DNA from: Oscillospiraceae bacterium
GTDB taxonomy: Bacteria; Bacillota; Clostridia; UBA1381; UMGS1253
Length of the DNA stretch: 64,000 bases
Reading direction: 5' to 3'
Assembly (NCBI GenBank): GCA_015068725.1
Contig: SVKA01000006.1
Span: 11,562 to 75,561, forward strand
Made by a program: the position numbers and the translations under genes. Within the stretch, counting starts at the first letter, position 1; each line of letters starts with the position of its first letter. Positions 1-46,799 of this stretch are shown here, piece by piece. The notes below the pieces were generated by a model. The model saw only the letters and a list, made by a program, of their open reading frames with translations. It searched no databases and was not told where the DNA came from.

Positions 1-208
1 TTGGGAAATATTTGCCGAACTCACCGCGGAGCGGCTGCCGTGAAATTCTTTGAGAGTAGGGGCAGACGGGAACTCCCGTAACAGAGTAAAGATGTGATGG
101 CATCTAAGGGCATCCTTTAAGGATGAAGAAGAGTGGTACCGCGGAAGCATAATAAGGATTTTACGCTTTCGTCTCTTTGAAATCAACGAAGAGACGAGGG
201 CGTTTTTT
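1..208 (+). promoter_or_regulatory. T-box leader (tRNA-sensing transcription attenuator), 5'-truncated by the window edge; probable Leu (CUC) specifier
   Basis: T-box core AAGAGTGGTACCGCGG at 129-144. Stem III-like hairpin CATCCT/AGGATG at 111-125. A 14-15 bp terminator helix (164-177 pairing with 189-202) is followed by TTTTTT at 203-208. GAA-CTC-A at 17-23 fits the specifier-loop pattern. Stem I runs off the window. Confidence 0.8.
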
Positions 209-252
209 GTTGATTGGAAAAGAAAGGGTTAAAACGAAAGGGGTTTTATTAG

Positions 253-1641
253 GTGAAAAAAATCAATGTATCAGACATTACGTTAAAAAAGCTGGCACAG
301 GACAGAGAGGTTTCGCTTTTGTTTCGCGAAAAGACGGCAATTGCCGCTTGTGCAGATGCGCTTGGCGTAGATGCTATTGAGCTTTCGGCAATTAAAAATT
401 TGCGCGAAGATACTATTGTTTATAAAACGATTGCAAAAAATATTCAAAAGAGCATTGTTGCAATTCCTGTTGGTTTTTCATCTGATGATGTAAAAAATGC
501 GTGGGAATGTGTGAAGGAAGCCGCAGCACCGAGATTGCAGGTAGAAGTACCGACATCCACAGTTCAGATGGAGTATATGTATCATCTTAAGGCGGATAAA
601 ATGATAGCAAAAATTGCCGAGCTTGTTACAGAGGCAAAAAAGCTTTGTAATGATGTAGAGTTTGTTGCAACAGACGCTACACGTGCTGATGAGGAGTTTT
701 TGATTGAGGCAGTAAAAACGGCTGAGCAAAATGGTGCCAAGATAATTACAATTTGTGATGATGCAGGTATAGCACTTCCGGAAGAAATTGCAGCGCTTGT
801 TTCTAAGGTAAAGCAGGCTGTAAATGCAGATGTTTATGTGCAGGTATCTGACGCTATCGGTATGGCGGTATCTGCAGCAGTGGCGGCAATCAGTGTAGGC
901 ATTGATGGTCTAAAGTGTGCAATGGCAGGCGAAAATTCGCTTTCTATGGGCGCTTTGTCAAAAGCTATTTCAGCGCGCGGCGATGCGATTGGCGTTTCGG
1001 TAGCGTTAGAAAACACAAAAATTCACGCAAGCATTGATGATATGCTTTCAAAAATTAACCATGAAGCCTACAAAAGCGCAGATGATATAAGTGAGAAAAA
1101 GAAGATTTTGCTCGATGAGGATTCGACGCTTTCTGACGTGGCTTATGCGGCAAAGGTGCTCGGATACGATTTGTCGGATGAAGATAACGGCAAGGTGCAT
1201 AAGGTGCTTATGCAGGTTTGTGAAAAAAAGGGAAGCGTTGGTGCAAAGGAATTTGAGGCTCTTATTGCAAGCAACGCAATGCAGGCACCGTCAACATATC
1301 ATTTTGAAAGTTATTCAACAAGTTGCGGCAATTTGACGACGGCAATGTCACAGGTAACTCTTAGATGCGGTGATGAAATTCTTTGCGGCGTAAGCATAGG
1401 TGATGGTCCGATTGATTCGGTATTTCGTGCGATTGAGCAAAGCATTGGCTATCATTATGAGCTTGATGATTTTCAAATTCAGTCGGTAACAGACGGCAAG
1501 GAAGCACTTGGTTCTGCTTTGGTAAAGCTTCGCGTAGGCGGCAAGCTTTATTCAGGAAACGGCAGCTCTACCGATATTGTAGCGGCAAGCATCAGGGCAT
1601 ATATAAATGCACTCAACAAGATTGTGTTTGAGGAGGCGTAA
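253..1641 (+). CDS. LeuA-like protein: 2-isopropylmalate synthase-family TIM barrel with degenerate catalytic motifs plus a C-terminal LeuA regulatory/dimerisation domain
   Basis: GTG start 9 nt after AAAGGGG. Collinear with IPMS (TSTVQMEY, FVATDATRAD, ICDDAGIALP). The C-terminus (GDGPIDSVFRAIE...STDIVAASIRAYINALNKI) resembles the LeuA_dimer domain. DITLKKLAQ replaces DTTLRDGEQ, and VQVSDAIGMAV replaces HxHNDxGxAV. Confidence 0.85.
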   Translation: MKKINVSDITLKKLAQDREVSLLFREKTAIAACADALGVDAIELSAIKNLREDTIVYKTIAKNIQKSIVAIPVGFSSDDVKNAWECVKEAAAPRLQVEVPTSTVQMEYMYHLKADKMIAKIAELVTEAKKLCNDVEFVATDATRADEEFLIEAVKTAEQNGAKIITICDDAGIALPEEIAALVSKVKQAVNADVYVQVSDAIGMAVSAAVAAISVGIDGLKCAMAGENSLSMGALSKAISARGDAIGVSVALENTKIHASIDDMLSKINHEAYKSADDISEKKKILLDEDSTLSDVAYAAKVLGYDLSDEDNGKVHKVLMQVCEKKGSVGAKEFEALIASNAMQAPSTYHFESYSTSCGNLTTAMSQVTLRCGDEILCGVSIGDGPIDSVFRAIEQSIGYHYELDDFQIQSVTDGKEALGSALVKLRVGGKLYSGNGSSTDIVAASIRAYINALNKIVFEEA

Positions 1642-1643
1642 GG

Positions 1644-4103
1644 ATGAAACTGACCTTTTCTACAAAAAACGTAAACAGAGCATCTTTTTTTGATACCTGT
1701 CGTTATGCGTATGATTACGGATATGCGGGTTTTGAGATTTATGATGCAATAAAAGAGAGAAAACAACACCACGATAGTATTCTTCGAAGTGAACGCACGG
1801 CAGATTCTAAAAGAAAGCTTTTTAATCGTGGACTTAATGTTTCTGCTTTGGTGTATCCGTATCCGATAGAGAGTAGTGATGCGACCGCGGATTCCGTTGT
1901 AAAATATGTAGATATGGCGGCAAATGCGGGAATTGAGCGCATTATTGTGCGCATCGAGGAAAAAACCTCGAATGAGGTGCTTTGTGAAAAGATTGGCGAG
2001 GCTGTTAAAAAGGCAGGGAATGCTGATATTCAGATATTGTTTGAAACATCGGGTTATCTTGCAAAAACAGAGAACGTAATTGATATTATAAACTTTTTCT
2101 CTTCTGCGGCGGTAGGTGTTTCGTGGAATACGCGCGAAACGTACTTTAGAGCAGGTGAGAGCGCAGATACTACAATCAAAACGCTTGGTGCGTATATAAA
2201 ATATGTACGTCTTGGTGATATGAAGGATGGCAAAAGTGTGCTGATAGGAGAGGGCGAGCTTCCCGTAACAAACGTTATTAATGCTCTTTCTTCGCTGAAT
2301 TTTGACGGATATATCTGTGTCGATTGGAACGAAGAAATACAAGACGCCGATATTGTACTTACACATTTTACAAATTATATTGGAGGACTTTCCCGAAAGA
2401 AAAAGGAGAAAGACGGTGCATACTATAACCGCGACAAATCCGGTACGTTTGTGTGGAAAAAATACGACGTTATCGACGCAACTTTTTCCGATGTGCTTGA
2501 TACAATGGTTGAAAAGTATCCTGACCAGTATGCGTTTAAATACACAACGCTTGATTACACAAGAACGTATTCGCAGTTTCGTCGCGATGTAGACGAATGT
2601 GCGGCAGCGCTTATATCGCTTGGTGTAAAGGCGGGCGACCACGTTGCTATATGGGCGACGAATGTGCCTGCATGGTTTATTACCTTCTGGGCAACGACAA
2701 AAATCGGTGCAGTACTTGTTACAGTCAATACAGCATATAAAATTCATGAGATTGAATATCTTTTAAAGCAGTCAGATACACATACGCTTGTGATGATTGA
2801 GGATTGCAAAGATATTAACTATAAAGAAATTATCGAAGAACTTTGTCCCGAGCTTAAAAATATAAATCCGGGAGAGCCACTTTATTCGAAAAATCTTCCG
2901 TTCCTGCGAAATGTTGTTACGGTTGGATTTTCAATGGATGGCTGTCTTACATGGGAGCAGATGCTTGAGCGCTCATCGCTCATACCTCAGGAGGAGGTGC
3001 GCCGCAGAGCATCGCTTGTAAAGCCTGACGATGTTTGTAATATGCAGTATACATCAGGTACGACGGGATTTCCGAAGGGCGTTATGCTTACGCACAGAAA
3101 CATTGTTAATAATGGTAAAACTATTGGCGACAGAATGGATTTATCAACGGCAGATCGCATGATGATTCAGGTACCGATGTTCCATTGTTTTGGTATGGTG
3201 CTATCCATGACATCGATGATGACGCATGGCGGTACGCTCTGTCCAATGCCGTATTTTTCGCCAAAGTCATCGCTTGCATGTGTAAATGATGAGCATATTA
3301 CATGCTTCAACGGCGTGCCGACAATGTTTATAGCAATGTTTAACCACGCAGATTTTGCAAAAACAGACTTTTCGTATATGCGTACGGGAATTATGGCGGG
3401 CGCAAACTGTCCTGCGGATTTGATGCGCCGTGCATCTGTCGAGATGAATATGCGTGAGATTATTTCCGTATACGGTCAGACCGAGGCTTCGCCCGGATGT
3501 ACGATGGGCGAGGTTAATGAGGACCTTGACCACAGAGTTGAAACTGTTGGAAGCGCTTTTCCGGGAGTTGAATGTAAGATTATTGACCCTGAAACAGGCG
3601 AGGAGCTGCCTGATGGTGAAAGCGGCGAATTTGTTGCGCGTGGCTTTAACATTATGAAGGGCTACTATAAAATGCCCGAGGCAACAGCACAGACGATTGA
3701 TGCAGACGGATGGCTTCATTCGGGGGATATTTGCTGCAGAACATCTGACGGATATTACAAGGTTACAGGACGTCTTAAAGATATGATTATCCGTGGCGGT
3801 GAAAATCTTTATCCGCGTGAAATTGAAGAGTTTTATCTTACACATCCGAAGGTGCGCGACGTTCAGGTTGTAGGTGTGCCCGATGAAAAGTACGGTGAAG
3901 AATGTTGTGCGTGGATTATTCTTCATAAAGGGGAAGAGTCGGACGAAAATGAGATGCGTGAGTATGGTAATGCCTCTATTGCCCGCCATAAAGTGCCAAA
4001 GTACTTTGTGTTTGTAAAAGAGTTCCCCATGAATGCAGCAGGTAAAATTCTAAAATATAAGATGCGTGATGAATCGGTAGAAATTTTAGGATTAAAAAAG
4101 TAA
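1644..4103 (+). CDS. Fusion protein: N-terminal xylose-isomerase-like TIM barrel (sugar phosphate isomerase/epimerase family) plus C-terminal AMP-forming acyl-CoA synthetase
   Basis: The ATG lies 2 nt after the upstream stop. Residues 1-250 resemble AP_endonuc_2/TIM. Residues ~260-819 carry adenylation motifs YTSGTTGFPKGV, VYGQTEAS, GDICCRTSDGYYKVTGRLKD and the C-terminal GKILK. Confidence 0.85.
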   Translation: MKLTFSTKNVNRASFFDTCRYAYDYGYAGFEIYDAIKERKQHHDSILRSERTADSKRKLFNRGLNVSALVYPYPIESSDATADSVVKYVDMAANAGIERIIVRIEEKTSNEVLCEKIGEAVKKAGNADIQILFETSGYLAKTENVIDIINFFSSAAVGVSWNTRETYFRAGESADTTIKTLGAYIKYVRLGDMKDGKSVLIGEGELPVTNVINALSSLNFDGYICVDWNEEIQDADIVLTHFTNYIGGLSRKKKEKDGAYYNRDKSGTFVWKKYDVIDATFSDVLDTMVEKYPDQYAFKYTTLDYTRTYSQFRRDVDECAAALISLGVKAGDHVAIWATNVPAWFITFWATTKIGAVLVTVNTAYKIHEIEYLLKQSDTHTLVMIEDCKDINYKEIIEELCPELKNINPGEPLYSKNLPFLRNVVTVGFSMDGCLTWEQMLERSSLIPQEEVRRRASLVKPDDVCNMQYTSGTTGFPKGVMLTHRNIVNNGKTIGDRMDLSTADRMMIQVPMFHCFGMVLSMTSMMTHGGTLCPMPYFSPKSSLACVNDEHITCFNGVPTMFIAMFNHADFAKTDFSYMRTGIMAGANCPADLMRRASVEMNMREIISVYGQTEASPGCTMGEVNEDLDHRVETVGSAFPGVECKIIDPETGEELPDGESGEFVARGFNIMKGYYKMPEATAQTIDADGWLHSGDICCRTSDGYYKVTGRLKDMIIRGGENLYPREIEEFYLTHPKVRDVQVVGVPDEKYGEECCAWIILHKGEESDENEMREYGNASIARHKVPKYFVFVKEFPMNAAGKILKYKMRDESVEILGLKK

Positions 4104-4109
4104 ATTAAG

Positions 4110-4141
4110 AAAAAAATGCACCCCGCAGGGTGCATTTTTTG
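4110..4141. terminator. Bidirectional rho-independent terminator between convergent genes
   Basis: A-run, then TGCACCC-cgca-GGGTGCA, then T-run. Confidence 0.8.
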
Positions 4142-4159: not shown

Positions 4160-7100
4160 TTATTTCTTTTCTGTAAATACAATCTCAACAAGTGAGTTCC
4201 ACTTATTTACGCTGTTTCCATAACCCTTGTATTTTACATATCTTGCCTTTGCACCACCAAGGTCAAACGGCTCAAGCTCTCCCGTTTTAAATGTACCACT
4301 TGTTTCCATACCGGTAATCACCGGCGTATAGTTTACGCCATCCTCGGAAACTTCTATGTCGAATTTGTATTTTCTTACATTACCCTGCATAAACGTGAAC
4401 ATAACCTTGTCAAGCGTTTTTACTCTGCCAAAATCATATATACCCCATGCGTCGTGATTATCGCTTGACACACCCCAATATGTGCCATAATTGCCATCAA
4501 AGCTTGCTTCAATTTGTCTTGCAGGATTTGCCTCTGCTCCGCTTTGTTCAGCTTTTACAATCTTGATATAATTTTCTACTCCAAGCTCTTTTTGTCCGTC
4601 CATAGCAGGGATTATTGTTACCTTTTCTGCAAATTCATCCCACGAAACCTTTGCGCCAAGGTTTTCAGCAACAAAACGTACAGGAATTACAAATCTGCCG
4701 TCAATTATCATCGCCGGAACATCAAGTTCAACTGGTTCATCATTTACATAAACCGTATTCTGATTTTCTGTAATTACTATCCTTGTATCACCATTATCAG
4801 CCGTTGCTGTCAAGGTTGCCTCATCCCAAGTTACCTCAGCATCCATAGCCTCTAAAAGCGCACGCATAGGAATAAGCGTTCTGCCATCTCTTATTGTCGG
4901 TGGTACATCTGAATAGAGGAAGTTGTTGTTAAAGAAGATTGTTACGCCTTCAACCTCGGGTGCGCCACCGTCTGTAAACTTTTTGTCTGCATCTGCGCTT
5001 GCATAGGTAAGTGTATACTCACCTGCAGGAGCAGTAAAGTAGATTATACCACCATCTTCTGATGCAATCTGTGTGTCGATTTCGCTACCGTTTACAGATA
5101 TTTTCCACGTACCTGCCTCAAGACCTGCAACGTTAACCTTGAGCGCAGCTTCGCCACCCGGAACTGTGAATGTTACAGCATCCTTTGTGCGAGCCTTGTT
5201 TTTATTAAACATAACAACTCTGTCAAATATCTTTGCACCGGCAAAGCTGTCTGTTTCAATAAGTTCTGCCTTTTCAACAGGTGAATTATCATCAGCATTG
5301 CCAACGTACATTACATTTAACATATAGTCAACCTTGCCCGACTTCTTTGGCATAATTTCAACTCTGCCCCATCCTGCTTCAAGGCTACCACTAACATCTT
5401 CAACTCTGCCCGCATCGGAACCTGTTGCTTTGCCTGATTCTTCCAAAGTAAACCAGTTCTGGTCTTTGTTCCAGAAGCGCTTATCTTTTCCGCCGATTTT
5501 TTCAATCGCTAAATTTTCAGCAGCAGGAAGAAGTGTCTGATTTACAAGTTTGCCGTTATAGTCACGCTCTGTTCTTTTTATTGTAGTAACGTTACCGCTA
5601 ACCTCAGGCTCTTCTTGTGAGTGAAGAAGAAATGCCTTTTTCTTTCCGCCAACCTTTGTATCAACCTTGTCAAACACAACAAACGCAGCAGGATTTTTCT
5701 CGTTACCTGTCGGAAGGAAAATCATATGACGAAGAGCTTCGTTTACGCCATCATCACTGTCAGAAGTGTATGCGTTTGCAATATCACCTGCTATATATGA
5801 ATATTCCGGATACTGCAAATCAGGACCAAACTCGTGGCCAATAACGTCTGCCCAGTGATTTTCCTTATTTTCCTGATAACCCTTCCATGTACTATCAATC
5901 CAGTAGAAGTTCTTTCCGGATCTGCTATCTACACCAATTCCGCCTATACCCTGGTTCTGATTGCCCCATTTATTATAATCAGTTTCTATTACAAGTGTGT
6001 TATGTGCAACAGACTGCACGGTATAGTGTGCATGCTGATCTGAGCTATGTTTTTCATACCAGCCCGAGTCATTTGCCAAAATACCTTTATAGTAAATCAT
6101 AAAGTGTCCGCAGTCATAGTGCGCATGGTTCATACCATTGTACTCACCAATCATCATCGTCGCTACAACGTCGTTTGACTTTGTGCCCATATTCCAGCCT
6201 GTACGTGCAACCATCTCACCAACCGGTGAACCAAAATATTTTGTAAGCGGAAGTGTTTCGGCAGATGCCTTTGTCGCATCAACTGAAATATCATTGAGCA
6301 GAAGCATTTCCGTAGGAAGTACACCCTCTCGGCCAATTCTTGGTTTAAATCCGCCCTGATATAAAAATTCTTTTTTCAAAATTGGATCGCCCTGTAAAAC
6401 CGAGCCCATAAACATACCGTCTGTGCCCTTCATTGCGTATGTATTTTTCGGTATTCCGTTAAATCCTGCAGTATCATCGCCGTCAATCATCAAAAGACCA
6501 TCGGGGCGACGCTTATATATCCACTCATACATAAGGCTTGCAAGCTGGTCTTCATTGAACAGTTCATAACCACTCATACGTTTAACAAGCATATGTGCAT
6601 ATGCCAAAGATGTATAACGATTCATAAGTCCATAGCAGCTTCCCTGTGAATGTTGTCCCGACTGAGTCCACCAGTTTGTATATGCAACAGACTCATCAGA
6701 CAATATCTTGCCCATTACAAGGTTATATGCATCGGGATATTCGTCATAAGCGGCAATCGCCATTACAAGCCAGTCACGATAAAGCTGTGCTTCGGCGCCG
6801 TGACCGCAGATGATAGTCTGTTTGTCCGGTGGGAAGCCAACCTCCATATCGGATGATATCTGCTGTGCAAGAAGCATCAGTTCTGCTTTATCCTTCTCAC
6901 TAAGCAATGGATAACACCAGTCATATACCTGACCAATGGTTTTTAATGCATGTCCTTCATTACGAGTATTATCACCTATCGCCGAAAAATCAATAGATTC
7001 TGCATAAGTTTTCATTGCAGAAATTGCCTGTTTAGCGTTTTCTTCGTTTCCATACAGCGCATAATCAAGCGCTTTTGCCGAAATTATCTCAAGTCCTCTA

Positions 7101-7954
7101 GCATTATAATTCGAAGATGTATTTGCAAGCACGCCATTATATTCTGCATCTTTAAGCGAGTTAAACTCTTTAACAATTTCAGTCATTTCCGGACTTGCTA
7201 TATTTTCCATAATTTTAGGAATATCCTTTTTTGTAAAAAATACTCTCGGATGCTCCGGAGGTGGTGTTATTGTAGGAATAGGATAGCGGTCCTCGGGCAT
7301 TTTGGCCGGTTTGCCAACTTCTGCAGGATCAGGCAACTTACCCGTCCCTTCCGGTTGATAAGCAGTATGTTTAGTTATAATAATCTTATCCAGTATACAT
7401 CCGGGTTCACGGGCTTGTATACGTATTTTTTGTTTATCGCCGGCATTTTCAACCAATATTGAACCCATTCTGTCCCATCTGTAGTCCGTTTCATGTTCAG
7501 ATAACTGTCCTGCAAAGCCATCAGAAAGGTAGCCTGTGTTACCTGTTCTGTATTCAGTAGCACCATAATCAATAAAGATTGTGTCACTGCCACCGGTCAT
7601 TGCCAGAAAGCGAACCCACATATTATATTTGCCCGCCTGATCAAATTCTACCTCAAAGCCTACCATAGCAGGGGTATCCGGTGCAGGTGTCACCAAATTT
7701 GTGGGGATAAACTTTACGTGTTTTCTGCCCGACGCTTCTTTGGCATTTTCTATTTGTACATTCCCCGGGTCAATAACATGTTTTTCAAGCTCGACCGCAA
7801 CCGAGCCTGCCTCCGTAGTATACAGTGCATACTTCGTCGGATCGTCAGCATCTGCCGAACCGGCACTTGTCATAACCGGATACACGGCAAATATACTCAT
7901 AAGCATTGTAAGTATCAAAACAAGTGTAATCGGTTTTACTGTTTGTTTTTTCAC
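4160..7954 (-). CDS. Secreted multidomain polysaccharide lyase (heparinase II/III-like) with an N-terminal CBM-like domain, a copper-amine-oxidase-N-like 'stalk' domain and a C-terminal F5/8 type C (discoidin/CBM32-like) domain
   Basis: Signal peptide MKKQTVKPITLVLILTMLMSIFAVYPVMTSAGSADA. EHPRVFFTKKDIPKI and NHAHYDCGHFMIYYKG are heparinase II/III-type motifs. A stalk-like repeat DGRTLIPMRALLEAM...GRFVIPVRFVAENLGAKVSW is present. The discoidin-like C-terminus contains FDGNYGTYWG. Confidence 0.75.
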   Translation of the reverse strand: MKKQTVKPITLVLILTMLMSIFAVYPVMTSAGSADADDPTKYALYTTEAGSVAVELEKHVIDPGNVQIENAKEASGRKHVKFIPTNLVTPAPDTPAMVGFEVEFDQAGKYNMWVRFLAMTGGSDTIFIDYGATEYRTGNTGYLSDGFAGQLSEHETDYRWDRMGSILVENAGDKQKIRIQAREPGCILDKIIITKHTAYQPEGTGKLPDPAEVGKPAKMPEDRYPIPTITPPPEHPRVFFTKKDIPKIMENIASPEMTEIVKEFNSLKDAEYNGVLANTSSNYNARGLEIISAKALDYALYGNEENAKQAISAMKTYAESIDFSAIGDNTRNEGHALKTIGQVYDWCYPLLSEKDKAELMLLAQQISSDMEVGFPPDKQTIICGHGAEAQLYRDWLVMAIAAYDEYPDAYNLVMGKILSDESVAYTNWWTQSGQHSQGSCYGLMNRYTSLAYAHMLVKRMSGYELFNEDQLASLMYEWIYKRRPDGLLMIDGDDTAGFNGIPKNTYAMKGTDGMFMGSVLQGDPILKKEFLYQGGFKPRIGREGVLPTEMLLLNDISVDATKASAETLPLTKYFGSPVGEMVARTGWNMGTKSNDVVATMMIGEYNGMNHAHYDCGHFMIYYKGILANDSGWYEKHSSDQHAHYTVQSVAHNTLVIETDYNKWGNQNQGIGGIGVDSRSGKNFYWIDSTWKGYQENKENHWADVIGHEFGPDLQYPEYSYIAGDIANAYTSDSDDGVNEALRHMIFLPTGNEKNPAAFVVFDKVDTKVGGKKKAFLLHSQEEPEVSGNVTTIKRTERDYNGKLVNQTLLPAAENLAIEKIGGKDKRFWNKDQNWFTLEESGKATGSDAGRVEDVSGSLEAGWGRVEIMPKKSGKVDYMLNVMYVGNADDNSPVEKAELIETDSFAGAKIFDRVVMFNKNKARTKDAVTFTVPGGEAALKVNVAGLEAGTWKISVNGSEIDTQIASEDGGIIYFTAPAGEYTLTYASADADKKFTDGGAPEVEGVTIFFNNNFLYSDVPPTIRDGRTLIPMRALLEAMDAEVTWDEATLTATADNGDTRIVITENQNTVYVNDEPVELDVPAMIIDGRFVIPVRFVAENLGAKVSWDEFAEKVTIIPAMDGQKELGVENYIKIVKAEQSGAEANPARQIEASFDGNYGTYWGVSSDNHDAWGIYDFGRVKTLDKVMFTFMQGNVRKYKFDIEVSEDGVNYTPVITGMETSGTFKTGELEPFDLGGAKARYVKYKGYGNSVNKWNSLVEIVFTEKK

Positions 7955-8095
7955 TTTTTATTCCTCCTTCGGATATTATTTGTGTAAGTGTTTACAACAC
8001 TTCTAATATTAATGTACGATATTTTTTTATAAGTTTCAAGACACTTTGCCGTTTTGTGTGAAATAGGAAATAAAATGTGTGATAATGGAAATATA

Positions 8096-8119
8096 AAAAG
8101 GACGCTTGTGCGTCCTTTT
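8096..8119 (-). terminator. rnj terminator
   Basis: AAAAGGACGC-ttgt-GCGTCCTTTT hairpin with a T-run on the minus strand, 12 nt after the rnj stop. Confidence 0.75.
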
Positions 8120-8130
8120 ATCTTAAAAAA

Positions 8131-9813
8131 TCAAACCTCCATAATAACGGGAAGTATCATTGGTGAGCGTTTTGTTTTTTCATACATATAGTCGCTCAGT
8201 GTATTTTTCATCGCAAGCTTTAATGCATTCCAGTCAGTTGCGCCCTTTAAAACGCACGCATCAAGTGCTTCTTTTGTAACCTGACGCGCTTCTTCCATCA
8301 ATTCTTCGGCTTCTCTTACATATACAAAGCCCCTTGATATAATGTCAGGTCCTGCGACGATTTCGCCATTATCTGCACTTATCGAAACGACGCAAACAAT
8401 AAGTCCGTCGTTTGAAAGGTGCTTTCTGTCGCGAAGGACAATGTTTCCAACGTCGCCAACGCCAAGACCATCTACCAAAAGCTTGCCCGATGGTACGGTG
8501 GTGGTCATTTTTGCGCCCTTTTCATCAAGCTCAAGCACACGGCCGTTTTCCATAATAAATACGTTTTTTTCTTCCACGCCCATGAGCGTACCAAGCTGCG
8601 AATGACGGTGCAAATGGCGGTATTCGCCGTGTACGGGCATAAAATATTTTGGTTTTGTAAGAGCAAGCATAAGCTTTAATTCTTCCTGACAAGCGTGCCC
8701 CGAAACGTGCACCTCGGCAAGTGATTCGTATATAACCTCTGTTCCTTGCTTGAAAAGCTCGTTTATAACGCGCGAAATTGTTTTTTCATTACCGGGAATA
8801 GGGCTTGCAGAAACTATGATAAGGTCATTTCTTGTAAGCTCTACCTTGCGGTGGTCAGAATATGCCATTCTGAAAAGCGCGCTCATCGCCTCGCCCTGCG
8901 AGCCTGTGGTTACTATGACAAGCTGATTGTCATTATAGCGGTTTATATCATCAATGCTGATGAGTGTTTTTTCAGGAATTGTCATATAACCAAGAAGTAT
9001 TGCAACCTCAATGATATTTTCCATGCTTCTGCCTGAAACGGCAACTTTTCTTCCATATTTTGCGGCGGTATTTATGATTTGCTGAACTCTGTGAACGTTC
9101 GATGCAAAGGTAGCTACAATAATACGTTTTTCACAGTTTTTGAAGATTTCATCAAAGGTTGAGCCGACGCTTCTCTCGCTCATTGTATAGCCTGCGCGCT
9201 CGACGTTGGTCGAATCACTCATTAAAAGAAGTACACCCTCGCGGCCAAGCTCGCCGAGTCTTGTAAGGTCAATCATTTCACCGTCTATGGGAGTTGAGTC
9301 GATTTTAAAGTCGCCTGTATGAACAACTGTACCGACGGGTGTTTTGATTGCAAGAGCAACCGAGCCTGCAATCGAGTGATTTGAGTGAATAAACTCAACC
9401 ATAAAGGAGCGCCCAATTTTGATACTGTCGCCGGGTTTTACACGATTTAGCTTGGCGCTTGACAATATGTTGTGCTCTTTAAGCTTTGTTTCGATAAGTC
9501 CTATCGTAAGCTTTGTTGCGTACACAGGCACGTTTACTTTCTTTAAAAAGAAGGGCAGGGCACCGATGTGATCTTCGTGTCCGTGTGTAATTACTACGCC
9601 ACGTACCCTTTCAATGTTTTTTTCAAGATACGACGTATCAGGTATGACAAGGTCGATACCGGGCATATCATCGTCGGGGAAAGCAATTCCACAGTCAACA
9701 ACAAAGATGTCGTCGCCGTACTCGAATACCGTCATATTTTTGCCAATTTCGTTCAGGCCGCCTAACGGTATAATTTTAAGTTTTTGTTTTTTTGGCACTA
9801 AAATATCCTCCAT
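8131..9813 (-). CDS. rnj: Ribonuclease J
   Basis: Beta-lactamase/beta-CASP layout, HGHEDHIGA motif, ~560 aa length and a typical N-terminus KIIPLGGLNEIGKNM. Confidence 0.92.
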   Translation of the reverse strand: MEDILVPKKQKLKIIPLGGLNEIGKNMTVFEYGDDIFVVDCGIAFPDDDMPGIDLVIPDTSYLEKNIERVRGVVITHGHEDHIGALPFFLKKVNVPVYATKLTIGLIETKLKEHNILSSAKLNRVKPGDSIKIGRSFMVEFIHSNHSIAGSVALAIKTPVGTVVHTGDFKIDSTPIDGEMIDLTRLGELGREGVLLLMSDSTNVERAGYTMSERSVGSTFDEIFKNCEKRIIVATFASNVHRVQQIINTAAKYGRKVAVSGRSMENIIEVAILLGYMTIPEKTLISIDDINRYNDNQLVIVTTGSQGEAMSALFRMAYSDHRKVELTRNDLIIVSASPIPGNEKTISRVINELFKQGTEVIYESLAEVHVSGHACQEELKLMLALTKPKYFMPVHGEYRHLHRHSQLGTLMGVEEKNVFIMENGRVLELDEKGAKMTTTVPSGKLLVDGLGVGDVGNIVLRDRKHLSNDGLIVCVVSISADNGEIVAGPDIISRGFVYVREAEELMEEARQVTKEALDACVLKGATDWNALKLAMKNTLSDYMYEKTKRSPMILPVIMEV

Positions 9814-10050
9814 TTCATTTAATTTTTCCGCTCATTAATAATAAAAAATAAGTTTATTTAATTTGATATAATATAAATACTGTATTTTCCGAACACAACA
9901 TATTATAATATTTTACCATAAAATTGAACAATAGTCAATCAATGCAATAAAAAAATGCCGCAAAATATGTGTTATATGTTATTTTTTACATACATAACAA
10001 TATTTATACATAAATCTGCGGCAAAAGAACTTATATTAAATTTTTATCAA

Positions 10051-10866
10051 TCAAAATTGTGAGCAAAGCTTGTCATAGCAGGCCTTGATTTGTGGTATTG
10101 TATAACCCTTTTTATCGGTTAGCTCAAAAAGCACGGGGCCTGTGTAGCCCGACTTTAAAAGAAGTGAAAAAATCATTTTCCAGTCATTTACACCCTCATA
10201 AGGCAACAAATGTCTTTCGTTAATGCGGTCATAGTCGCTTACGTGTATGGTGATGATTTTGTCGCCGAATGCCTTTATAAAATCTTCGTTTGTATCCGTA
10301 AGAAGATGGTTTGTATCAAAGCATACGCGAAGTCTGAAATCGGCTGAAACAATTTTTGCCGTATCTTCAATAGTGTTTGCAAGGCATGTGCGCGGCAGAC
10401 ATTCCACCGCAAGCTCAGCTCCGAGTCTTTCAGCTTCATCTGCAAGAATTCTTATCGATGCCTTTGCATTTTCTGTGTGAATAAATCTTTTGTCGGGCTC
10501 AATCGGCTCATACGAGGGGTGAATTACAAATATTTTTATATCTGTATTTTCGCGCACAAAACGCATCATATCAAGCTGACGCTCGATTGCCTTTTTACGA
10601 ACTTCCTTATCAAGCGAGGCAATATCGTATGGGTCCCAAAACGAAAGATGTGCCGACCAGAGCTTGATATCCGCTTTTTTACAAGAATCAATAAGCTTTA
10701 ACCAATGACTTTGAATTACCTCATTTTCCATTCCGGGACATACTCCACCGATTGAAAGCTCTAACATATCAATTCCATTATCCTTGCACTCTTTTAGCAC
10801 TTCATAATCAGCCGAGGGCAAAAATGAGCTTGAAATTGCAAGTGGATTATTTGAAAGTTTTATCAT
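10051..10866 (-). CDS. Sugar phosphate isomerase/epimerase (xylose-isomerase-like TIM barrel)
   Basis: 271 aa with AP_endonuc_2-type pattern (VECLPR, FDTNHL, IHVSD, LFEL). Starts 40 nt after the polC stop on the same strand. Confidence 0.7.
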   Translation of the reverse strand: MIKLSNNPLAISSSFLPSADYEVLKECKDNGIDMLELSIGGVCPGMENEVIQSHWLKLIDSCKKADIKLWSAHLSFWDPYDIASLDKEVRKKAIERQLDMMRFVRENTDIKIFVIHPSYEPIEPDKRFIHTENAKASIRILADEAERLGAELAVECLPRTCLANTIEDTAKIVSADFRLRVCFDTNHLLTDTNEDFIKAFGDKIITIHVSDYDRINERHLLPYEGVNDWKMIFSLLLKSGYTGPVLFELTDKKGYTIPQIKACYDKLCSQF

Positions 10867-10906
10867 AAGTTAACACGCCTTTCTGTTTTGTATATGTAAG
10901 ATAAAT

Positions 10907-13900
10907 TTAACCAAGTAAATCTTCAAGAGACATCTGCGAGCTTGCCTGCATTCCGTTAAAGCAGCCGCTTTGTTCGAGTGAATCAAGGGCAGTTTTACTG
11001 ATTTTTGTTCGCATATGAAGGTCCTCGATTGAGTGGAATATTCCCTTCTCACGCTCTTCGCATATTGTAGTGGCCTGCGCAATGCTCACGTTTGGCAGAC
11101 TCGAAAGAGGGGGAAGAATTTTGTCGCCCTTTGGCAAAAAGTTTTTAGCATCCGACTCATACAAATCAACCGGTAAAAAGTCAAATCCGCGCGCATACAT
11201 TTCGCGGCAAAGCTCAAGTGTAGTGTATAAATCCTTATCCTTTTGTGTCGGGAGCGGAATGTTTTTTATATTTTTCATTGCCGCAAGAACCGTTTCAGCT
11301 CCATGGCACATAATGCTTGCATCAAATGCACCGAGCGCACGTATCGTAAAGTACGCACAGTAATATGCAATAGGGTAGTGCACCTTGCAGTAAGCAATAC
11401 GAAACGCCATCATTACGTATGCAACCGCATGCGCTTTCGGGAACATATACTTGATTTTGTTACATGAGTCTATATACCACTGCGGAACTTCGTGCGCCTT
11501 CATTTCGATTTCATCATCGCTGCTGAGGCCTTTTCCCTTACGCACCTTTTCCATTATTGTAAATGCCAGTTTTGGTTCAAGCCCCATATGTATAAGATAA
11601 ATCATTATATCATCACGCGTACAGATAGCTTCTGAAAGAACGATTTCGCCGCTTTGGATATAATCCTGCGCGTTGTTTGTCCAAACGTCTGTACCATGCG
11701 AAAGCCCCGATATACGAAGAAGCTCTGAAAACTTGGTCGGCTTTGTATCGACAAGCATCTGACGCACAAAATTTGTACCAAATTCAGGTACACCAAAGGT
11801 TCCGACCTCGCTTCCGATATCTTCACTTGTAACGTTAAGAGCTTCAGTATTCAGGAAAAGCGACAATGTCGGCTTGTCATCGAGCGGAATTTTCTTTGCG
11901 TCAATTCCCGTCAAATCCTCAAGCATTCTTATAACTGTCGGGTCATCGTGTCCGAGTATATCAAGCTTTAAAAGATTATCGTGGATGGAATGATAATCAA
12001 AATGCGTTGTTATAATTGTACTGTCCGCATCGTCGGCGGGGTGTTGTACGGGACAGAACTGATGTATATCGTTTGCCTTTGGCAAAATTATTACACCGCC
12101 CGGATGCTGACCGGTTGTGCGCTTTACGCCCGTACAGCCGAGCGAAATACGCTTGATTTCTGCATTATGAGCGACGATTGAGCGCTCATCAAAATATTTT
12201 TTAGCGTAGCCAAAGGCGGTTTTTTCGGCGATTGTGCCGATTGTTCCTGCACGAAAGACGTGCCCTTCGCCAAAAAGCTCCTCTGTATATTTATGTGCAA
12301 CGCTCTGATATTCGCCCGAAAAGTTAAGGTCGATATCAGGCTCTTTGTCGCCCTCGAAGCCCAAAAATGTTTCGAACGGAATGTCGTGTCCGTCTTTGGC
12401 ATAATTTTCGCCGCAAACAGGGCATACCTTATCTGGAAGGTCGCACCCAGATAAACCCGAGCCATCTGTGATAAACTCGCTGTGCTTGCAATTTTTGCAA
12501 ATATAATGCGCGGGAAGAGCGTTAACCTCTGTAATGCCCGACAAAAATGCGACAAATGACGAGCCGACAGAGCCACGCGAGCCGACCAGATATCCGTCGG
12601 AGAGCGACTTGCTTACAAGCTGCTGGGCGATTTTATACATAACCGAAAAGCCGTATGTGGTAATTGATTTTAGCTCTTTGTCCATACGCTGCTTTACAAT
12701 ATCGGGAAGTGGCTCGCCATAGATTTGTTTTGCCTTTTCGTTTGACATATTGATTATATCCTCCTGCGCGCCTTCAATGCTCGGCGGATACGTTCCTGAG
12801 CGTACGGGTGCAAGCACCTCGGTCATTTCACTTATGATATTTGGATTTTTTACTACAACCTCATATGCCGTTTCTTCGCCAAGATAGTCAAATTCATCGA
12901 GCATTTCCTGCGTTGTGCGAAGATATAACGGCGCCTGAAAATCAGCATCGTCAAAGCCTTTTCCTGCCATCAGCACACGGCGAAAAACCTCGTCCTCGGG
13001 GTCTAAAAAGTGAACGTCGCCCGTAGCAACGGTGAGCTTTCCGTGTTTTTTTCCAAGGGCAATAATTTTTTTGTTAATCTCCTGCAGATCCTCTTTTGAG
13101 CCAACCTGACCGTTTCTGAGCATAAATTCGTTGTTTCCGAGAGGCTGAATTTCAAAATAGTCATAAAATGCAGCGATATTGTCGATTTCCTGGGCGCTGC
13201 GACCTGAAAAAATTGCCTGATAAAGCTCGCCCGATTCACACGCAGAGCCGATGATAAGTCCTTCGCGATGCTTGTTTATAAGGCTTTTTGGCATACGCGG
13301 TGTACGGTAAAAATAGTCAAGATGCGACGCAGAGATAAGCCTGTACAAATTTTCGAGTCCGACAGGATTTTTTGCAAGTATGATTATATGATGCGACGGT
13401 ATGCCGCGCACATCAATTTTATCTCCAAAACAGGTGTTTAGCTCACATACATCGGTTACATTCATTTTTGAAAGCGCTTCTAGCATTTTTCTAAATATAT
13501 GAGCCGTTGCAAGAGCGTCATCGACAGCTCTGTGATGATTTTCAAGCGTTACTTTCAAATGCTTTGTAAGATTGTTTAATTTGTGGTTTTTAAGCTCGGG
13601 ATAAAGCTTTCGTGCAAGAGAGAGTGTATCGACATAGCACATAGAAAAGCTTTTGCCCATTCTTTCAAGGCTTGTACGAATAAAGCCTGTGTCAAAGTTT
13701 GCATTATGTGCTACAAGAACGCATCCCTCGCAAAAGCTTATAAAATCGGTTACTGCTTTTTCCTCCTTAGGTGCGCCCTTTACCATCGCATCATTAATCC
13801 CCGTAAGCTCGGTGATTTTTTGCGGTATCGCTACGGGCGGCTCGACAAAGGTGGAAAATGAATCTACAATTTCGCCTTCCCTGATTTTTACTGCGCCGAT

Positions 13901-14926
13901 TTCTATAATAAAGTTTGTTTCGGCGGAAAGCCCCGTCGTTTCAAGGTCGAAAACGACAAATGTATCGTTTAATTTGTGTGGTTTTTCATTATATGCAATA
14001 AGCGAGCGGTCGTCTACAACATAACCCTCTACGCCATATATTACTTTTATATTATTGTCCTTTGCGGCTTTTGCCGCCTCTGGAAATGCCTGCACAACGC
14101 CGTGGTCAGTTATAGCGATAGCTTTGTGCCCCCACGATGCCGCGCGCGCTATAAGGTCTGTTGCGCTCGACACTCCGTCCATAGTCGACATTTGCGTATG
14201 CATATGAAGCTCTACGCGCTTTTCTTTTGCATCATCTGTTTTTAATGGCGGAGCTTCAAGCTCATTTATATCATAAGCGGTGATAACAGTGTCGCGCGAA
14301 TATTTATCGTAAGCAACATCACCGTATACAGACACCCATTTGCCTTTTTTTAGACGCTTTTCAACTTTTTCTTTTTGCGCGCTGTCGCGCGTATGACCAA
14401 AAGAGCCATCTGCATTTTTCCTTGGCTGAAGATTGCAAAACAGCTTTACTGTTCGTGAATCCTTTTTATCTGTGATATCAAATGTTACAATCCACGAATG
14501 GTCTTTTCTTTCAAGCCATTCAACACAGAATATTTCGCCGCTTGTACGAACTCGTCCTGCTTCGGGGGTTACCTCGTCAAGGGCTAAAAGCTTGCCTTTG
14601 ATTTTTTTGCCTGCTATCACCTCGCTCGGCTTATTTGTGCCAAGCTGCGACTCAAACTGCTTTATAAGAGCCTCTTGTTCCGCCTGTTGGCGCAGCATTA
14701 TTTCGCTAACCACGTTTGATGATGGAATTTGTATATTTATATCATCAAGTCTATATTTAGTTATAAAAGTGTTTTTGAGCATCAAAAGCTGAGCTTCGGT
14801 AAGTGTAGACGTTTCAGAAAGCTCAATTGACATTGTGCGCTGCTTTTTATTTACACTGATTTTTGAAAGCTCGACTCCGGCAAGTGTATCGTCGCAGTCA
14901 GCAATCAAATCCTTGATTCTTGTCAT
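10907..14926 (-). CDS. polC: DNA polymerase III PolC-type
   Basis: PHP motif VELHMHTQMSTMDG, inserted 3'-5' exonuclease FVVFDLETTGLS...HRAVDDA, Zn module CKNCKHSEF...CPVCG, and polymerase core. Confidence 0.95.
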   Translation of the reverse strand: MTRIKDLIADCDDTLAGVELSKISVNKKQRTMSIELSETSTLTEAQLLMLKNTFITKYRLDDINIQIPSSNVVSEIMLRQQAEQEALIKQFESQLGTNKPSEVIAGKKIKGKLLALDEVTPEAGRVRTSGEIFCVEWLERKDHSWIVTFDITDKKDSRTVKLFCNLQPRKNADGSFGHTRDSAQKEKVEKRLKKGKWVSVYGDVAYDKYSRDTVITAYDINELEAPPLKTDDAKEKRVELHMHTQMSTMDGVSSATDLIARAASWGHKAIAITDHGVVQAFPEAAKAAKDNNIKVIYGVEGYVVDDRSLIAYNEKPHKLNDTFVVFDLETTGLSAETNFIIEIGAVKIREGEIVDSFSTFVEPPVAIPQKITELTGINDAMVKGAPKEEKAVTDFISFCEGCVLVAHNANFDTGFIRTSLERMGKSFSMCYVDTLSLARKLYPELKNHKLNNLTKHLKVTLENHHRAVDDALATAHIFRKMLEALSKMNVTDVCELNTCFGDKIDVRGIPSHHIIILAKNPVGLENLYRLISASHLDYFYRTPRMPKSLINKHREGLIIGSACESGELYQAIFSGRSAQEIDNIAAFYDYFEIQPLGNNEFMLRNGQVGSKEDLQEINKKIIALGKKHGKLTVATGDVHFLDPEDEVFRRVLMAGKGFDDADFQAPLYLRTTQEMLDEFDYLGEETAYEVVVKNPNIISEMTEVLAPVRSGTYPPSIEGAQEDIINMSNEKAKQIYGEPLPDIVKQRMDKELKSITTYGFSVMYKIAQQLVSKSLSDGYLVGSRGSVGSSFVAFLSGITEVNALPAHYICKNCKHSEFITDGSGLSGCDLPDKVCPVCGENYAKDGHDIPFETFLGFEGDKEPDIDLNFSGEYQSVAHKYTEELFGEGHVFRAGTIGTIAEKTAFGYAKKYFDERSIVAHNAEIKRISLGCTGVKRTTGQHPGGVIILPKANDIHQFCPVQHPADDADSTIITTHFDYHSIHDNLLKLDILGHDDPTVIRMLEDLTGIDAKKIPLDDKPTLSLFLNTEALNVTSEDIGSEVGTFGVPEFGTNFVRQMLVDTKPTKFSELLRISGLSHGTDVWTNNAQDYIQSGEIVLSEAICTRDDIMIYLIHMGLEPKLAFTIMEKVRKGKGLSSDDEIEMKAHEVPQWYIDSCNKIKYMFPKAHAVAYVMMAFRIAYCKVHYPIAYYCAYFTIRALGAFDASIMCHGAETVLAAMKNIKNIPLPTQKDKDLYTTLELCREMYARGFDFLPVDLYESDAKNFLPKGDKILPPLSSLPNVSIAQATTICEEREKGIFHSIEDLHMRTKISKTALDSLEQSGCFNGMQASSQMSLEDLLG

Positions 14927-14955
14927 GGTTTTCTCCTTTTAAGTATAAGGTGAGT

Positions 14956-16017
14956 TTACATTTTCTCAATTTCCTGCATAAGCGTCTTTACTATATTTTC
15001 CTGAGGCACTTTTTTTACAATTTCGCCCTTTTTGAAAATAAGTCCTACGCCATCTCCACCCGCAATTCCAATGTCGGCATCGCGTGCTTCGCCAGGGCCG
15101 TTTACAGCGCAGCCCATAACGGCAACCTTAATATCTTTATCAACATTTTTTGTAAGCTCATATACTTTATTTGCGATTTCAATAAGATTGATGCGGCATC
15201 TTCCGCAAGTAGGGCAGGACACAAAAGTAACACCGCTCTTTCTAAGACCGAGAGCTTTTAAAATTTCAATTCCCGCATAAACCTCTTTTACGGGGTTATC
15301 GGATAAGGACACACGAATTGTATCACCGATGCCTTCAGCAAGAAGTGTGCCTATTCCGACAGATGATTTTACAATGCCGCTCTCGTATGTACCGGCTTCG
15401 GTAACGCCAAGGTGCAAAGGATAGTCGCATTTTTCACTTGCAAGTCGATATGCCTTAATCATAGTAGGCACGTCCGAGGCTTTAAGCGAAAGCGCAATAT
15501 CATAAAAATCGCACTCCTCTAAAAGCTTTGCGTGCCCAAGCGCACTTTCAACAAGAGCTTCGGCAGTAGGCGAGCCATATTTTTGCAAAATGGATTTTTC
15601 GAGTGAACCACCATTCACGCCTATGCGTATGGGTATGTTTTTGCTTTTCGCCATATCGCATACGGCGCGAATTTTGTCTTTATCACCGATGTTGCCGGGA
15701 TTTATGCGTACCTTATCTACGCCGCCCTCCATACAAAGAAGTGCAAGCCGGTAATCAAAATGTATATCACATACAAGTGGTATGCTTATTTGCTTTTTTA
15801 TTTTGCCGACTGCTATTGCCGCCGCCTCGTCAGGTACGGCTACACGCACAATGTCGCAGCCTGCCTTTGTAAGCTCATTTATCTGGGCAACGGTTTTTTC
15901 TACGTCGCGCGTGTCGGTGTTTGTCATTGACTGCACGCTGACAGGGTTTTGGCCACCTATTTTTAAAGAGCCGACAGTTATTTCTTTTGTAATTTTTCTA
16001 TTGTTCATGAAAATCAA
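14956..16017 (-). CDS. ispG: 4-hydroxy-3-methylbut-2-en-1-yl diphosphate synthase
   Basis: [19 protein letters not shown] and the C-terminal SCPTCGR...GCAVNGPGE cluster motifs. Confidence 0.93.
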
Positions 16018-16029
16018 ATCCTTTTTGTT

Positions 16030-17178: not shown

Positions 17179-17200
17179 AAAATCACGTCCTTAAATACTT

Positions 17201-18352: not shown

Positions 18353-18384
18353 TTTACACAACCTTCTTTTTTATTTATCTTAAA

Positions 18385-19212: not shown

Positions 19213-19254
19213 AAAAACTCCTCCGATGCCGATAAATATTCTATGTGCGGCGCT

Positions 19255-19992: not shown

Positions 19993-20025
19993 AACAACCT
20001 CCGCACATAAGCTTTATACAGGTTA

Positions 20026-20580: not shown

Positions 20581-20637
20581 GATAATTTCCTCCTTGAATG
20601 TTTGTTTTATTATAATTTTATGTGTATATTTTCTAAT

Positions 20638-21411
<774 letters not shown>

Positions 21412-25754: not shown

Positions 25755-25784
25755 GACCTTTCTTTTTTGATAAAATTCAGCTAT

Positions 25785-25813
25785 ATTATATTTTATATTG
25801 TCCGCAAAAGCAA
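25785..25813 (-). promoter_or_regulatory. SigA-type promoter of the orphan gene
   Basis: On the minus strand, TTGCTT, a 17-nt spacer, then TATAAT, about 30 nt upstream of the RBS. Confidence 0.6.
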
Positions 25814-25829
25814 TAAAAAAATCAAAAAA

Positions 25830-25896
25830 ACAAAAATAACAAACAGAAAAACAAAAATAACAAACAGAAAAACAAAAATAACAAACAGAAAAACAA
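25830..25896. repeat. Perfect 21-bp tandem repeat, ~3.2 copies (ACAAAAATAACAAACAGAAAA)
   Basis: Read directly. Units at 25830-25850, 25851-25871 and 25872-25892, plus a partial unit. It lies between the ATPase terminator and the downstream promoter. Confidence 0.95.
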
Positions 25897-46794: not shown

Positions 46795-46799
46795 GTATG

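Follow-up and report, generated by a model that had tools for sequence, protein, structure and literature searches.

The ORF1–ORF2 operon and its leader

The window analysed here is a stretch of 64,000 nucleotides (nt) from an Oscillospiraceae bacterium (GenBank assembly GCA_015068725.1, contig SVKA01000006.1, positions 11,562 to 75,561 of the forward strand). At its start, two adjacent open reading frames (ORFs), ORF1 and ORF2, follow an RNA leader of the T-box type. ORF1 is related to the leucine-biosynthetic enzyme 2-isopropylmalate synthase (LeuA, IPMS) and ORF2 joins a TIM (triosephosphate isomerase) barrel to an acyl-coenzyme A (acyl-CoA) synthetase. We examine this pair as a candidate system for making leucine from isovalerate. 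The leader, the two genes and the end of the operon are laid out as follows, in window positions:

1–208, + strand: 3' two-thirds of a T-box leader (Rfam RF00230 match)
20–22, + strand: specifier codon CUC (Leu), read from the sequence and aligned to the Rfam specifier position as in the related loci L001, L013 and L054
131–148, + strand: conserved T-box core AGAGUGGUACCGCGGAAG (antiterminator bulge), from sequence and Rfam
163–208, + strand: intrinsic leader terminator, a 17-bp stem followed by a U-run
253–1641, + strand: ORF1, 462 amino acids (aa), GTG start, HMGL-like and LeuA_dimer domains (Pfam)
1644–4103, + strand: ORF2, 819 aa, AP_endonuc_2, AMP-binding and AMP-binding_C domains (Pfam)
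4111–4140, no strand assigned: bidirectional terminator hairpin that closes the ORF1–ORF2 operon

The RF00230 model aligns to window positions 1–179 and model positions 71–219 with 58.8 bits (E-value 1.9e-12), and the match is flagged as cut at its 5' end. This score lies below the RF00230 gathering score of 93 bits because the window begins within Stem I, and the 5'-cut copy was not recovered when the whole window was scanned at Rfam gathering thresholds. Present in the window are the Stem I 3' strand, which includes the specifier loop, and after it Stem II/III, the T-box/antiterminator and the terminator; the promoter and the Stem I 5' half precede the window edge. Promoter and Stem I 5' strand are present in a 93%-identical locus (L003) from the metagenome-assembled genome (MAG) 'Candidatus Aphodoplasma sp.', and the full-length T-boxes of orthologous loci score 103–135 bits on RF00230 (seven loci confirmed by Rfam).

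The specifier loop reads GAA-CUC-A at positions 17–23, with the conserved purine A23, and is followed by the helix strand CCGCG (through position 28). As GAA-CUC-A abuts the 5' side of CCGCG, which is the canonical specifier position, the specifier is assigned as CUC (Leu); the partner strand CGCGG and the kink-turn UGA are present in L001, L003 and L013. The T-box consensus UGGNACC is contained in AGAGUGGUACCGCG at 131–144, and the UGGU of the T-box would pair with the ACCA at the 3' end of the tRNA. Antiterminator and terminator are mutually exclusive in this leader, as is characteristic of T-boxes. ORF2 starts 3 nt past the stop of ORF1, and the two genes are predicted to be translationally coupled. 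Since the hairpin at 4111–4140 closes the unit and the next gene is convergent, the operon consists of two genes here. Judged from its sequence, the leader is predicted to be a transcription-attenuating T-box with a Leu (CUC) specifier that controls this coupled two-gene operon.

ORF1 is a LeuA-derived protein with a degenerate active site

ORF1 consists of a degenerate barrel of the DRE-TIM type, a linker and a C-terminal allosteric domain:

262–930, + strand: HMGL-like barrel of ORF1 (Pfam, 112 bits; IPMS structure alignments)
1243–1623, + strand: LeuA_dimer (allosteric/dimerisation) domain of ORF1 (PF08502, 100.6 bits)

The barrel has kept the IPMS fold, with a root-mean-square deviation of 1.9 Å to 3ewb and of 1.9–2.3 Å across 3ewb, 3rmj and 3eeg. 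The residues on which catalysis in LeuA depends are replaced. In the alignment to the IPMS structures 3ewb and 3rmj, the RDG motif of LeuA corresponds to K12-K13-L14 in ORF1 (nt 286–294) and the HxH motif to Q197-V-S199 (nt 841–849), which amounts to the substitutions R to K12, D to K13, H to Q197 and H to S199. These are found throughout the family: among 79 homologues, K12 occurs in 99%, K13 in 84%, Q197 in 86% and S199 in 96%. According to a table in PMC10464499, the single change R80K inactivates the IPMS of Mycobacterium tuberculosis. On the NCBIfam LeuA equivalogs, ORF1 reaches 254.6 bits at best (cut-off 532) and otherwise 190–236 bits (cut-offs 598–748). Because the metal ligands Asp/His/His and the catalytic Arg are replaced family-wide and all scores stay below the cut-offs, ORF1 cannot be a Claisen condensing enzyme of the known type. 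A divergent yet active LeuA was considered and rejected, the metal ligands being lost.

The allosteric domain is the best-conserved part of ORF1. PF08502 matches over profile positions 4–130 of 131, that is 127 of 131 positions, and the match includes the motif GDGPIDSVF (nt 1399–1425). Invariant columns make up 46% of the allosteric domain vs 18% of the barrel, and the domain is nearly unchanged in relatives at ~50% identity. When the C-terminal domain alone was compared with the PDB sequences, chance matches only were obtained, and its AlphaFold2 (AF2) model is of low confidence (predicted local distance difference test, pLDDT, <50). Domain order, barrel fold, a LeuA_dimer domain bearing the GDGPID motif and an upstream Leu T-box are thus common to ORF1 and LeuA, whereas ORF1 differs in the replaced metal ligands and catalytic Arg and in scores under half of every LeuA cut-off. 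ORF1 is a descendant of 2-isopropylmalate synthase in which metal ligands and catalytic Arg are gone and the strongly conserved allosteric domain is kept.

ORF2 joins a divergent TIM barrel to an acyl-CoA synthetase

The domains and ligase motifs of ORF2 are as follows:

1644–2408, + strand: N-terminal TIM barrel (Pfam AP_endonuc_2, PF01261)
2505–4046, + strand: AMP-binding and AMP-binding_C (ligase) domains (Pfam, 318.8 and 62 bits)
3048–3080, + strand: ligase motif YTSGTTGFPKG
3471–3485, + strand: ligase motif YGQTE
3720–3728, + strand: ligase motif SGD
3768–3815, + strand: ligase motif GRLKDMIIRGGENLYP
4035–4055, + strand: ligase motif AAGKILK

The barrel matches PF01261 with 53.2 bits (gathering score 31.1) and is modelled by AF2 with a pLDDT of 91. 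Its nearest structures are ketose 3-epimerases and UlaE, at 13–17% identity and a TM (template modelling) score of ~0.7 (Foldseek E-value 1e-13). When the E-D-H-E metal tetrad of MJ1311 is used as the reference, only E134 is clearly kept; by alignment alone, the Asp corresponds to N162, the His position is E or G at 165 and the fourth Glu is uncertain (W228-N229-E230). All homologues found for this barrel are fragments or whole fusions of the same ORF2 kind. Hence, the search for close functional relatives of the barrel was negative: structural neighbours stand at 13–17% identity and homologues are all fusions of the same type. The barrel shares the fold and the AP_endonuc_2 match with xylose-isomerase-like barrels such as ketose 3-epimerases, UlaE and AsbF, and is set apart from them by low identity, by a metal tetrad most of which is not recognisable and by its fusion to an acyl-CoA synthetase.

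In the ligase part, the ANL core motifs A3, A5, A7 and A8 and the A10 lysine are intact, and ORF2 is predicted to carry a catalytically complete AMP-forming acyl-CoA synthetase domain behind the divergent barrel. The best NCBIfam family is NF009233/PRK12583, with 674.9 bits over residues 277–817, short of the cut-off of 832. Neither MbcS (NF047394) among the 25 best NCBIfam families listed for ORF2 nor 3ETC, the structure of the Methanosarcina acetivorans ligase MacsMa, among the 60 best PDB matches listed was found. The ligase domain (2505–4046) has a median identity of 93% to the window across L001–L082, while over 253–2408 the medians are only 74% (ORF1) and 73% (ORF2 barrel). An unusual constraint is also seen by column: 68% of the columns of the ligase N-domain are invariant.

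The first-pass annotation of this DNA, made from the letters and translations, had described a Leu T-box leader, an acyl-CoA synthetase fused to a TIM barrel and the absence of a canonical leucine-biosynthetic enzyme from the operon. The leader is borne out by the 58.8-bit RF00230 match, the CUC at 20–22 and the terminator at 163–208, the fusion by the three Pfam domains of ORF2, and the absence of such an enzyme by ORF1 scores of at most 255 bits against LeuA cut-offs of 532–748. Its description of ORF1 as a LeuA-derived protein that retains only the Leu-binding domain needs amendment: descent from LeuA and the allosteric domain stand, but the barrel fold is retained as well, and what is lost are the catalytic residues.

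Leucine-linked leaders are conserved across relatives

Relatives of ORF1 were found in at least 587 species-level genomes in a survey scan with one genome per species. The counts that follow refer to 81 distinct loci from the genome scan (L001 and L003–L082; L002 duplicates L003). Without exception, the 80 fetched loci belong to Clostridia of the gut or rumen that have not been cultured (Oscillospiraceae, Acutalibacteraceae, Ructibacterium and others). In each of 83 related loci, ORF2 lies next to ORF1 wherever the contig extends far enough; the 83 are the 81 and two relatives at ~50% identity, one of which is a Lachnospiraceae MAG. Upstream of ORF1, the following leaders are found:

53 loci of 81: T-box with CUC specifier
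2 loci of 81: T-box with CCC specifier
1 locus of 81: T-box with unreadable specifier
23 loci of 81: leader peptide and terminator, no T-box
2 loci of 81: contig truncated upstream of ORF1

A Leu-sensing leader therefore precedes the pair in 77 of the 81 loci, if the CUC T-boxes, the unreadable T-box and the leader peptides are counted together. The CUC specifier is kept in relatives from ~50% to 93% identity. In L083, Rfam at the gathering threshold found no T-box, but inspection of the sequence shows one whose specifier position reads CUC-G; in L084, no leader was found upstream of the pair.

In the 23 leader-peptide loci (L009, L011, L012, L014–L018, L019–L023, L025, L028, L030, L032, L034, L036, L037, L045, L060 and L075; for instance L017, 9690–10000), an ORF of 33–36 codons and then a strong terminator lie downstream of a sigma-70-type promoter, which was read in L009, L014 and L017. 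The leader ORF contains a run of Leu and Ile residues such as ILLLIAIIIL, and an example of the whole peptide is MNMQSFFTANILLLIAIIILAITKPDKNSAVCRVFK. The terminator ends 30–60 nt before ORF1, and since fewer than 60 nt leave no space for a second promoter, read-through must be regulated. In their layout, from which the mechanism is deduced, these loci look like classical leader-peptide attenuators. The leu leader of Escherichia coli likewise contains a run of Leu codons and resembles the Leu/Ile-rich leader ORF and terminator seen here. Leader-peptide attenuation is uncommon in Firmicutes, and in this family of loci it alternates with a T-box at one and the same site.

In L013 and L043 the two kinds of leader occur in one cluster, where the Leu T-box drives ORF1–ORF2 and a second promoter and leader ORF drive the genes for the branched-chain aminotransferase IlvE and a VorB-type 2-oxoacid:ferredoxin oxidoreductase (VOR). 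The second attenuator lies between ORF2 and IlvE:

L013, 12910–13170: attenuator with an Ile-rich leader
L043, ~4440–4690: attenuator with an Ile-rich leader

This second leader ORF is Ile-rich and Leu-free (MNFMTIINIITVISIIIIGGIIINIG...; MNFMTIINIITVISIIIIGGIIINIGNKNNAVCHV) and shares the C-terminal motif NAVC(R/H)V with the Leu/Ile leaders. As the Ile-rich leader of L013 and L043 lacks Leu, Leu codons appear in the leader peptide only when it controls ORF1–ORF2.

The pair is linked to IlvE, VOR and other T-box-gated ligases

In 22 of the 81 loci, IlvE is encoded within 10 kb of the pair, and in 19 of these 22 a four-subunit VorB-type VOR is encoded as well; the remaining three are cut off earlier by the end of the contig or of the fetched flank. 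The IlvE/VOR genes lie directly downstream of the pair and on the same strand in 18 of the 22. Both assignments are well above their family cut-offs, with 504 bits for IlvE on PRK13357 (cut-off 307) and 546 bits for the VorB-type alpha subunit on NF005507 (cut-off 399). Where the sequence continues, the extended operons encode IlvE, a P-loop nucleoside triphosphatase (NTPase) and the VOR delta, alpha, beta and gamma subunits; most leader-type loci without IlvE/VOR run off the contig. The first-pass annotation had suggested looking for just such an oxidoreductase and aminotransferase elsewhere in the genome. They are present in the relatives, in the numbers just given, and absent from the 64-kb window, the rest of which carries genes for housekeeping and sugar utilisation, none of them related to branched-chain amino acids.

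The extended operons retain the P-loop NTPase, a possible Fe-S maturation factor. In L017 (14933–15830) it is a 229-aa protein with weak ParA/NUBPL-like matches, encoded between IlvE and the VOR delta subunit, which in this locus is a 67-aa protein with two [4Fe-4S] clusters.

Further T-boxes in the same clusters precede other acid-CoA ligases. The clearest arrangement is that of L054, where three T-boxes in a row span 9683–20856:

Leu (CUC) T-box: precedes ORF1–ORF2
Ile (AUC) T-box, 97.5 bits: precedes a fusion of helix-turn-helix (HTH), cupin and ligase
Val (GUA) T-box, 85 bits: precedes a second HTH-cupin-ligase fusion
No leader: IlvE, then the P-loop NTPase, after the three T-box units

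The additional ligases are homologues of MbcS and MacsMa (625 bits to 3ETC, with MbcS as the best NCBIfam family), and ORF2 shares just 23% identity with its MbcS-like neighbour. Ile T-boxes precede MbcS-like ligases in at least ten loci and Val T-boxes do so in four. The two ligases of L054 (14198–16465 and 16802–19108) carry the HTH (XRE) and cupin domains as an N-terminal fusion, and in L017 (18282–20566) the HTH-cupin module is a separate gene just upstream of the ligase. A DNA-binding domain on the ligase suggests autoregulation.

Phe (UUC) T-boxes precede genes for PaaK-like phenylacetate-CoA ligases ~2.2 kb upstream of ORF1, and proteins with ACT domains follow ligase genes of the Phe and Ile type:

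L079, 7352–9085: Phe T-box and PaaK-like ligase, specifier UUC (120.6 bits)
L053, ~7550–9596: Phe T-box and PaaK-like ligase, specifier UUC
L076, ~7340–8818: T-box before a PaaK-like gene, specifier unreadable
L053, 16582–18027: protein with ACT and metallo-beta-lactamase parts
L079, 14621–16135, − strand: protein with ACT and metallo-beta-lactamase parts

This arrangement suggests a phenylacetate-to-phenylalanine salvage under the same logic. In L053, the Phe ligase is followed by an ACT-pair protein. Behind the Ile-T-box ligase comes a protein of ~480–500 aa in which an ACT domain like that of the acetohydroxyacid synthase (AHAS) small subunit is combined with a metallo-beta-lactamase fold.

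A proposed route from isovalerate to leucine

T-boxes and leader-peptide attenuators turn genes on under starvation. We consider it likely that ORF1–ORF2 form the leucine arm of a regulon that salvages acids into amino acids and that ORF2 makes isovaleryl-CoA. The leader would read through when tRNA-Leu is uncharged, and ORF2 would convert isovalerate, ATP and CoA to isovaleryl-CoA. A VorB-type oxidoreductase, which would be encoded elsewhere in this genome and lies in the same operon in many relatives, would reductively carboxylate isovaleryl-CoA to 4-methyl-2-oxopentanoate, and IlvE would transaminate the latter to leucine. The anabolic direction is proposed because control is starvation-induced and the ligase is of the AMP-forming type. 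A Leu-starvation-induced acid-activation operon for isovalerate salvage was also what the first-pass annotation had hypothesized; the IlvE/VOR linkage, the conserved Leu leaders and the parallel Ile, Val and Phe T-boxes now lend it support.

For ORF1 the proposal is more speculative, namely that it would be a leucine-binding regulatory partner exerting feedback control on the ligase. Because its allosteric domain is the best-conserved part of the protein and ACT-domain proteins follow the Phe and Ile ligase genes, we hypothesize that ORF1 probably senses leucine. An extended version can be put forward only tentatively, and we hold it to be rather doubtful: the dead LeuA copy might be an exapted allosteric subunit that feedback-inhibits an isovalerate-CoA ligase, maybe by docking on the TIM barrel of the ligase, within a modular Leu/Ile/Val/Phe regulon. 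Each acid-CoA ligase would then be doubly gated, by its cognate T-box and by a borrowed end-product-binding domain (LeuA_dimer for Leu, ACT for Ile and Phe).

Several observations weigh against the isovalerate-to-leucine route. The window of 64 kb contains no VOR or IlvE gene, and the assignment of isovalerate as the substrate of ORF2 is drawn from regulation and neighbourhood. The nearest family of ORF2, PRK12583/FadD-like, is usually annotated as acting on medium- or long-chain acids, ORF2 misses the cut-off of this family, and the MbcS-like ligases of the same clusters could in principle serve leucine too. Furthermore, a simple ligase step leaves two conserved barrels without an assigned role, the TIM barrel of ORF2 and the non-catalytic one of ORF1. 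On the side of regulation, the specifier is CCC, a Pro codon, in L055 (~2775) and L077 (~1905), in T-boxes of 109 and 129 bits. Since L073, which is 98% identical to L077, has CUC, the CCC of L077 is taken to be a recent single-base change, whether a mutation, a polymorphism or an assembly error. Finally, in minimum-energy folds of the leader-peptide variant with the ribosome 'stalled' on the Ile/Leu run, the terminator is kept, and the antiterminator, formed by the invariant UUUGUCGUG with the 5' arm of the terminator, is weak (~−10 kcal/mol) and G-U-rich.

The strongest of the alternatives is a different, novel leucine-related reaction catalysed jointly by ORF1 and ORF2. A new active site would arise from the two barrels, and the ligase would activate an acid other than isovalerate, for example 3-hydroxyisovalerate, 3-methylcrotonate or a 2-oxo or 2-hydroxy acid, with a product that feeds isovaleryl-CoA or 2-oxoisocaproate. 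Many invariant polar residues are indeed found in the ORF1 barrel (among them D8, R25, E43, E52-D53, E107 and R144) and in the ORF2 barrel (among them E134, N162, R164, D192 and H241), the latter has no close functional relative, and the ligase domain is unusually constrained (93% median identity). However, all three metal ligands and the Arg of LeuA are replaced in ORF1, where the Arg-to-Lys change alone inactivates the M. tuberculosis enzyme in the table mentioned above, in the ORF2 barrel most of the usual metal tetrad appears to be substituted as well, and a plain ligase with VOR and IlvE already makes a complete route. We therefore regard a new reaction as unlikely.

It has also to be considered that the isovaleryl-CoA (or another branched acyl-CoA) made by the ligase serves chiefly to prime membrane fatty acids of the iso-branched type and that leucine is not the main product. 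MbcS of Staphylococcus aureus sets a precedent for such a use (PMC10026030, PMC11167679), MbcS-like ligases occur in the same clusters, and lipid priming and leucine synthesis are not mutually exclusive. However, tRNA-Leu charging and Leu-codon leaders report the supply of leucine for translation and not the state of the membrane, and the operon link to IlvE and VOR would be superfluous for this role. Leucine synthesis is hence favoured over membrane lipid priming, which as the main function seems improbable to us.

That the operon is catabolic, running from leucine through 2-oxoisocaproate and isovaleryl-CoA to isovalerate, or that the T-box is a relic of an ancestral T-box–leuA operon, appears very improbable: VOR and IlvE do run oxidatively to branched-chain fatty acids in many Clostridia and ORF1 descends from leuA, a gene often found behind a Leu T-box in Firmicutes, but induction by starvation runs counter to a catabolic role, AMP-forming ligases are in effect one-way enzymes that would waste ATP in a catabolic route, the Leu sensor has been swapped for another Leu-codon device in 23 loci, and a CUC kept over the whole range of identity points to selection and not to a relic.

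Relation to known systems

The chemistry of the proposed isovalerate-to-leucine route is old. The carboxylation of isovalerate to leucine is established rumen biochemistry (Allison 1962, 1966, as cited in PMC7356843), and the rumen labelling work involves the same inferred steps, acid activation, ferredoxin-dependent reductive carboxylation and transamination, in the same habitat of gut and rumen Clostridia. The four pairs of acid and amino acid of Allison, as they appear among the references of PMC7356843, mirror the Leu, Ile, Val and Phe T-boxes described here. In contrast, that work consisted of labelling and physiology and came without genes, whereas a regulated gene set, a ligase type and a LeuA-derived partner are proposed here.

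MbcS of S. aureus and MacsMa (3ETC) are ligases of the AMP-forming type through which branched short-chain acids are salvaged from outside the cell, as is proposed for ORF2, and direct homologues of the two follow the Ile and Val T-boxes of the same clusters. The purified MbcS enzyme accepts 2-methylbutyrate and isobutyrate but is poor on isovalerate, and MbcS feeds lipid synthesis (PMC10026030). This poor activity on isovalerate provides a rationale for a distinct ligase type in the leucine arm, and ORF2 differs from MbcS in belonging to another ANL subfamily (PRK12583/FadD-like), in its TIM barrel and in its partner ORF1. With regard to regulation, the T-box-controlled ilv-leu operons of Firmicutes and the leu and ilv attenuators of enterobacteria use the same sensing logic, that is uncharged tRNA-Leu or ribosome stalling. 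The ilv-leu operons control the isopropylmalate pathway, whereas the genes under control here would be those of a salvage route.

In the literature searched, the coverage of which was incomplete, the operon, the ligase type and the LeuA-derived partner were not described, so that an earlier description is possible, and genes that activate branched-chain volatile fatty acids for amino-acid synthesis in Firmicutes were not found in it either. The gene system, the modular T-box logic and the LeuA-derived partner thus appear to be undescribed.

Since the 1960s, branched-chain volatile fatty acids have been recognized as growth factors of bacteria that degrade fibre in the gut and rumen, and they are fed to ruminants. 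The ORF1–ORF2 pair offers a concrete and widespread candidate for their use, present in at least 587 species-level genomes, of which those fetched are all from uncultured gut Clostridia. The Leu, Ile, Val and Phe T-boxes would act as built-in labels that predict the substrate of each ligase, and cloning of two genes would be a direct route to a test of the old pathway. ORF1 may provide a clean example of a biosynthetic enzyme turned regulatory pseudoenzyme, and the pair could serve as a marker for gut taxa that depend on cross-fed isovalerate.

Other features of the window and flanks

The gene convergent to ORF2 (4160–7954, − strand) encodes a 1264-aa secreted protein with DUF4962, heparinase II/III, Cu-amine-oxidase-N1 and F5/8 type C domains. 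It is missing at the syntenic site in L002/L003, where RNase J directly follows ORF2. Further features of the window are the following:

10051–10866, − strand: 271-aa ORF, probably a xylose-isomerase-like TIM barrel, from synteny with an AP_endonuc_2 gene in L002 only
23421–25907, − strand: 828-aa ORF without Pfam match, adjoining an 824-aa P-type ATPase (25926–28400)
46719–47154, − strand: cluster of tRNA genes, five in number (Lys-UUU, Gln-UUG, His-GUG, Arg-UCU and Gly-UCC)
62697–63554, + strand: stand-alone xylose-isomerase-like TIM barrel gene (115 bits)

No tRNA-Leu gene was found in the window. The barrel genes at 62697–63554 and 10051–10866 are of ordinary sugar-metabolism types and are unrelated to the barrel of ORF2. 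In the flanks of other loci, additional T-boxes occur at L046 (~15418), L061 (~9385), L048 (~18200) and L069 (~15557); their targets are trpB (in two loci), thrS and a sodium/solute symporter, the specifier of which looks like UAC (Tyr).

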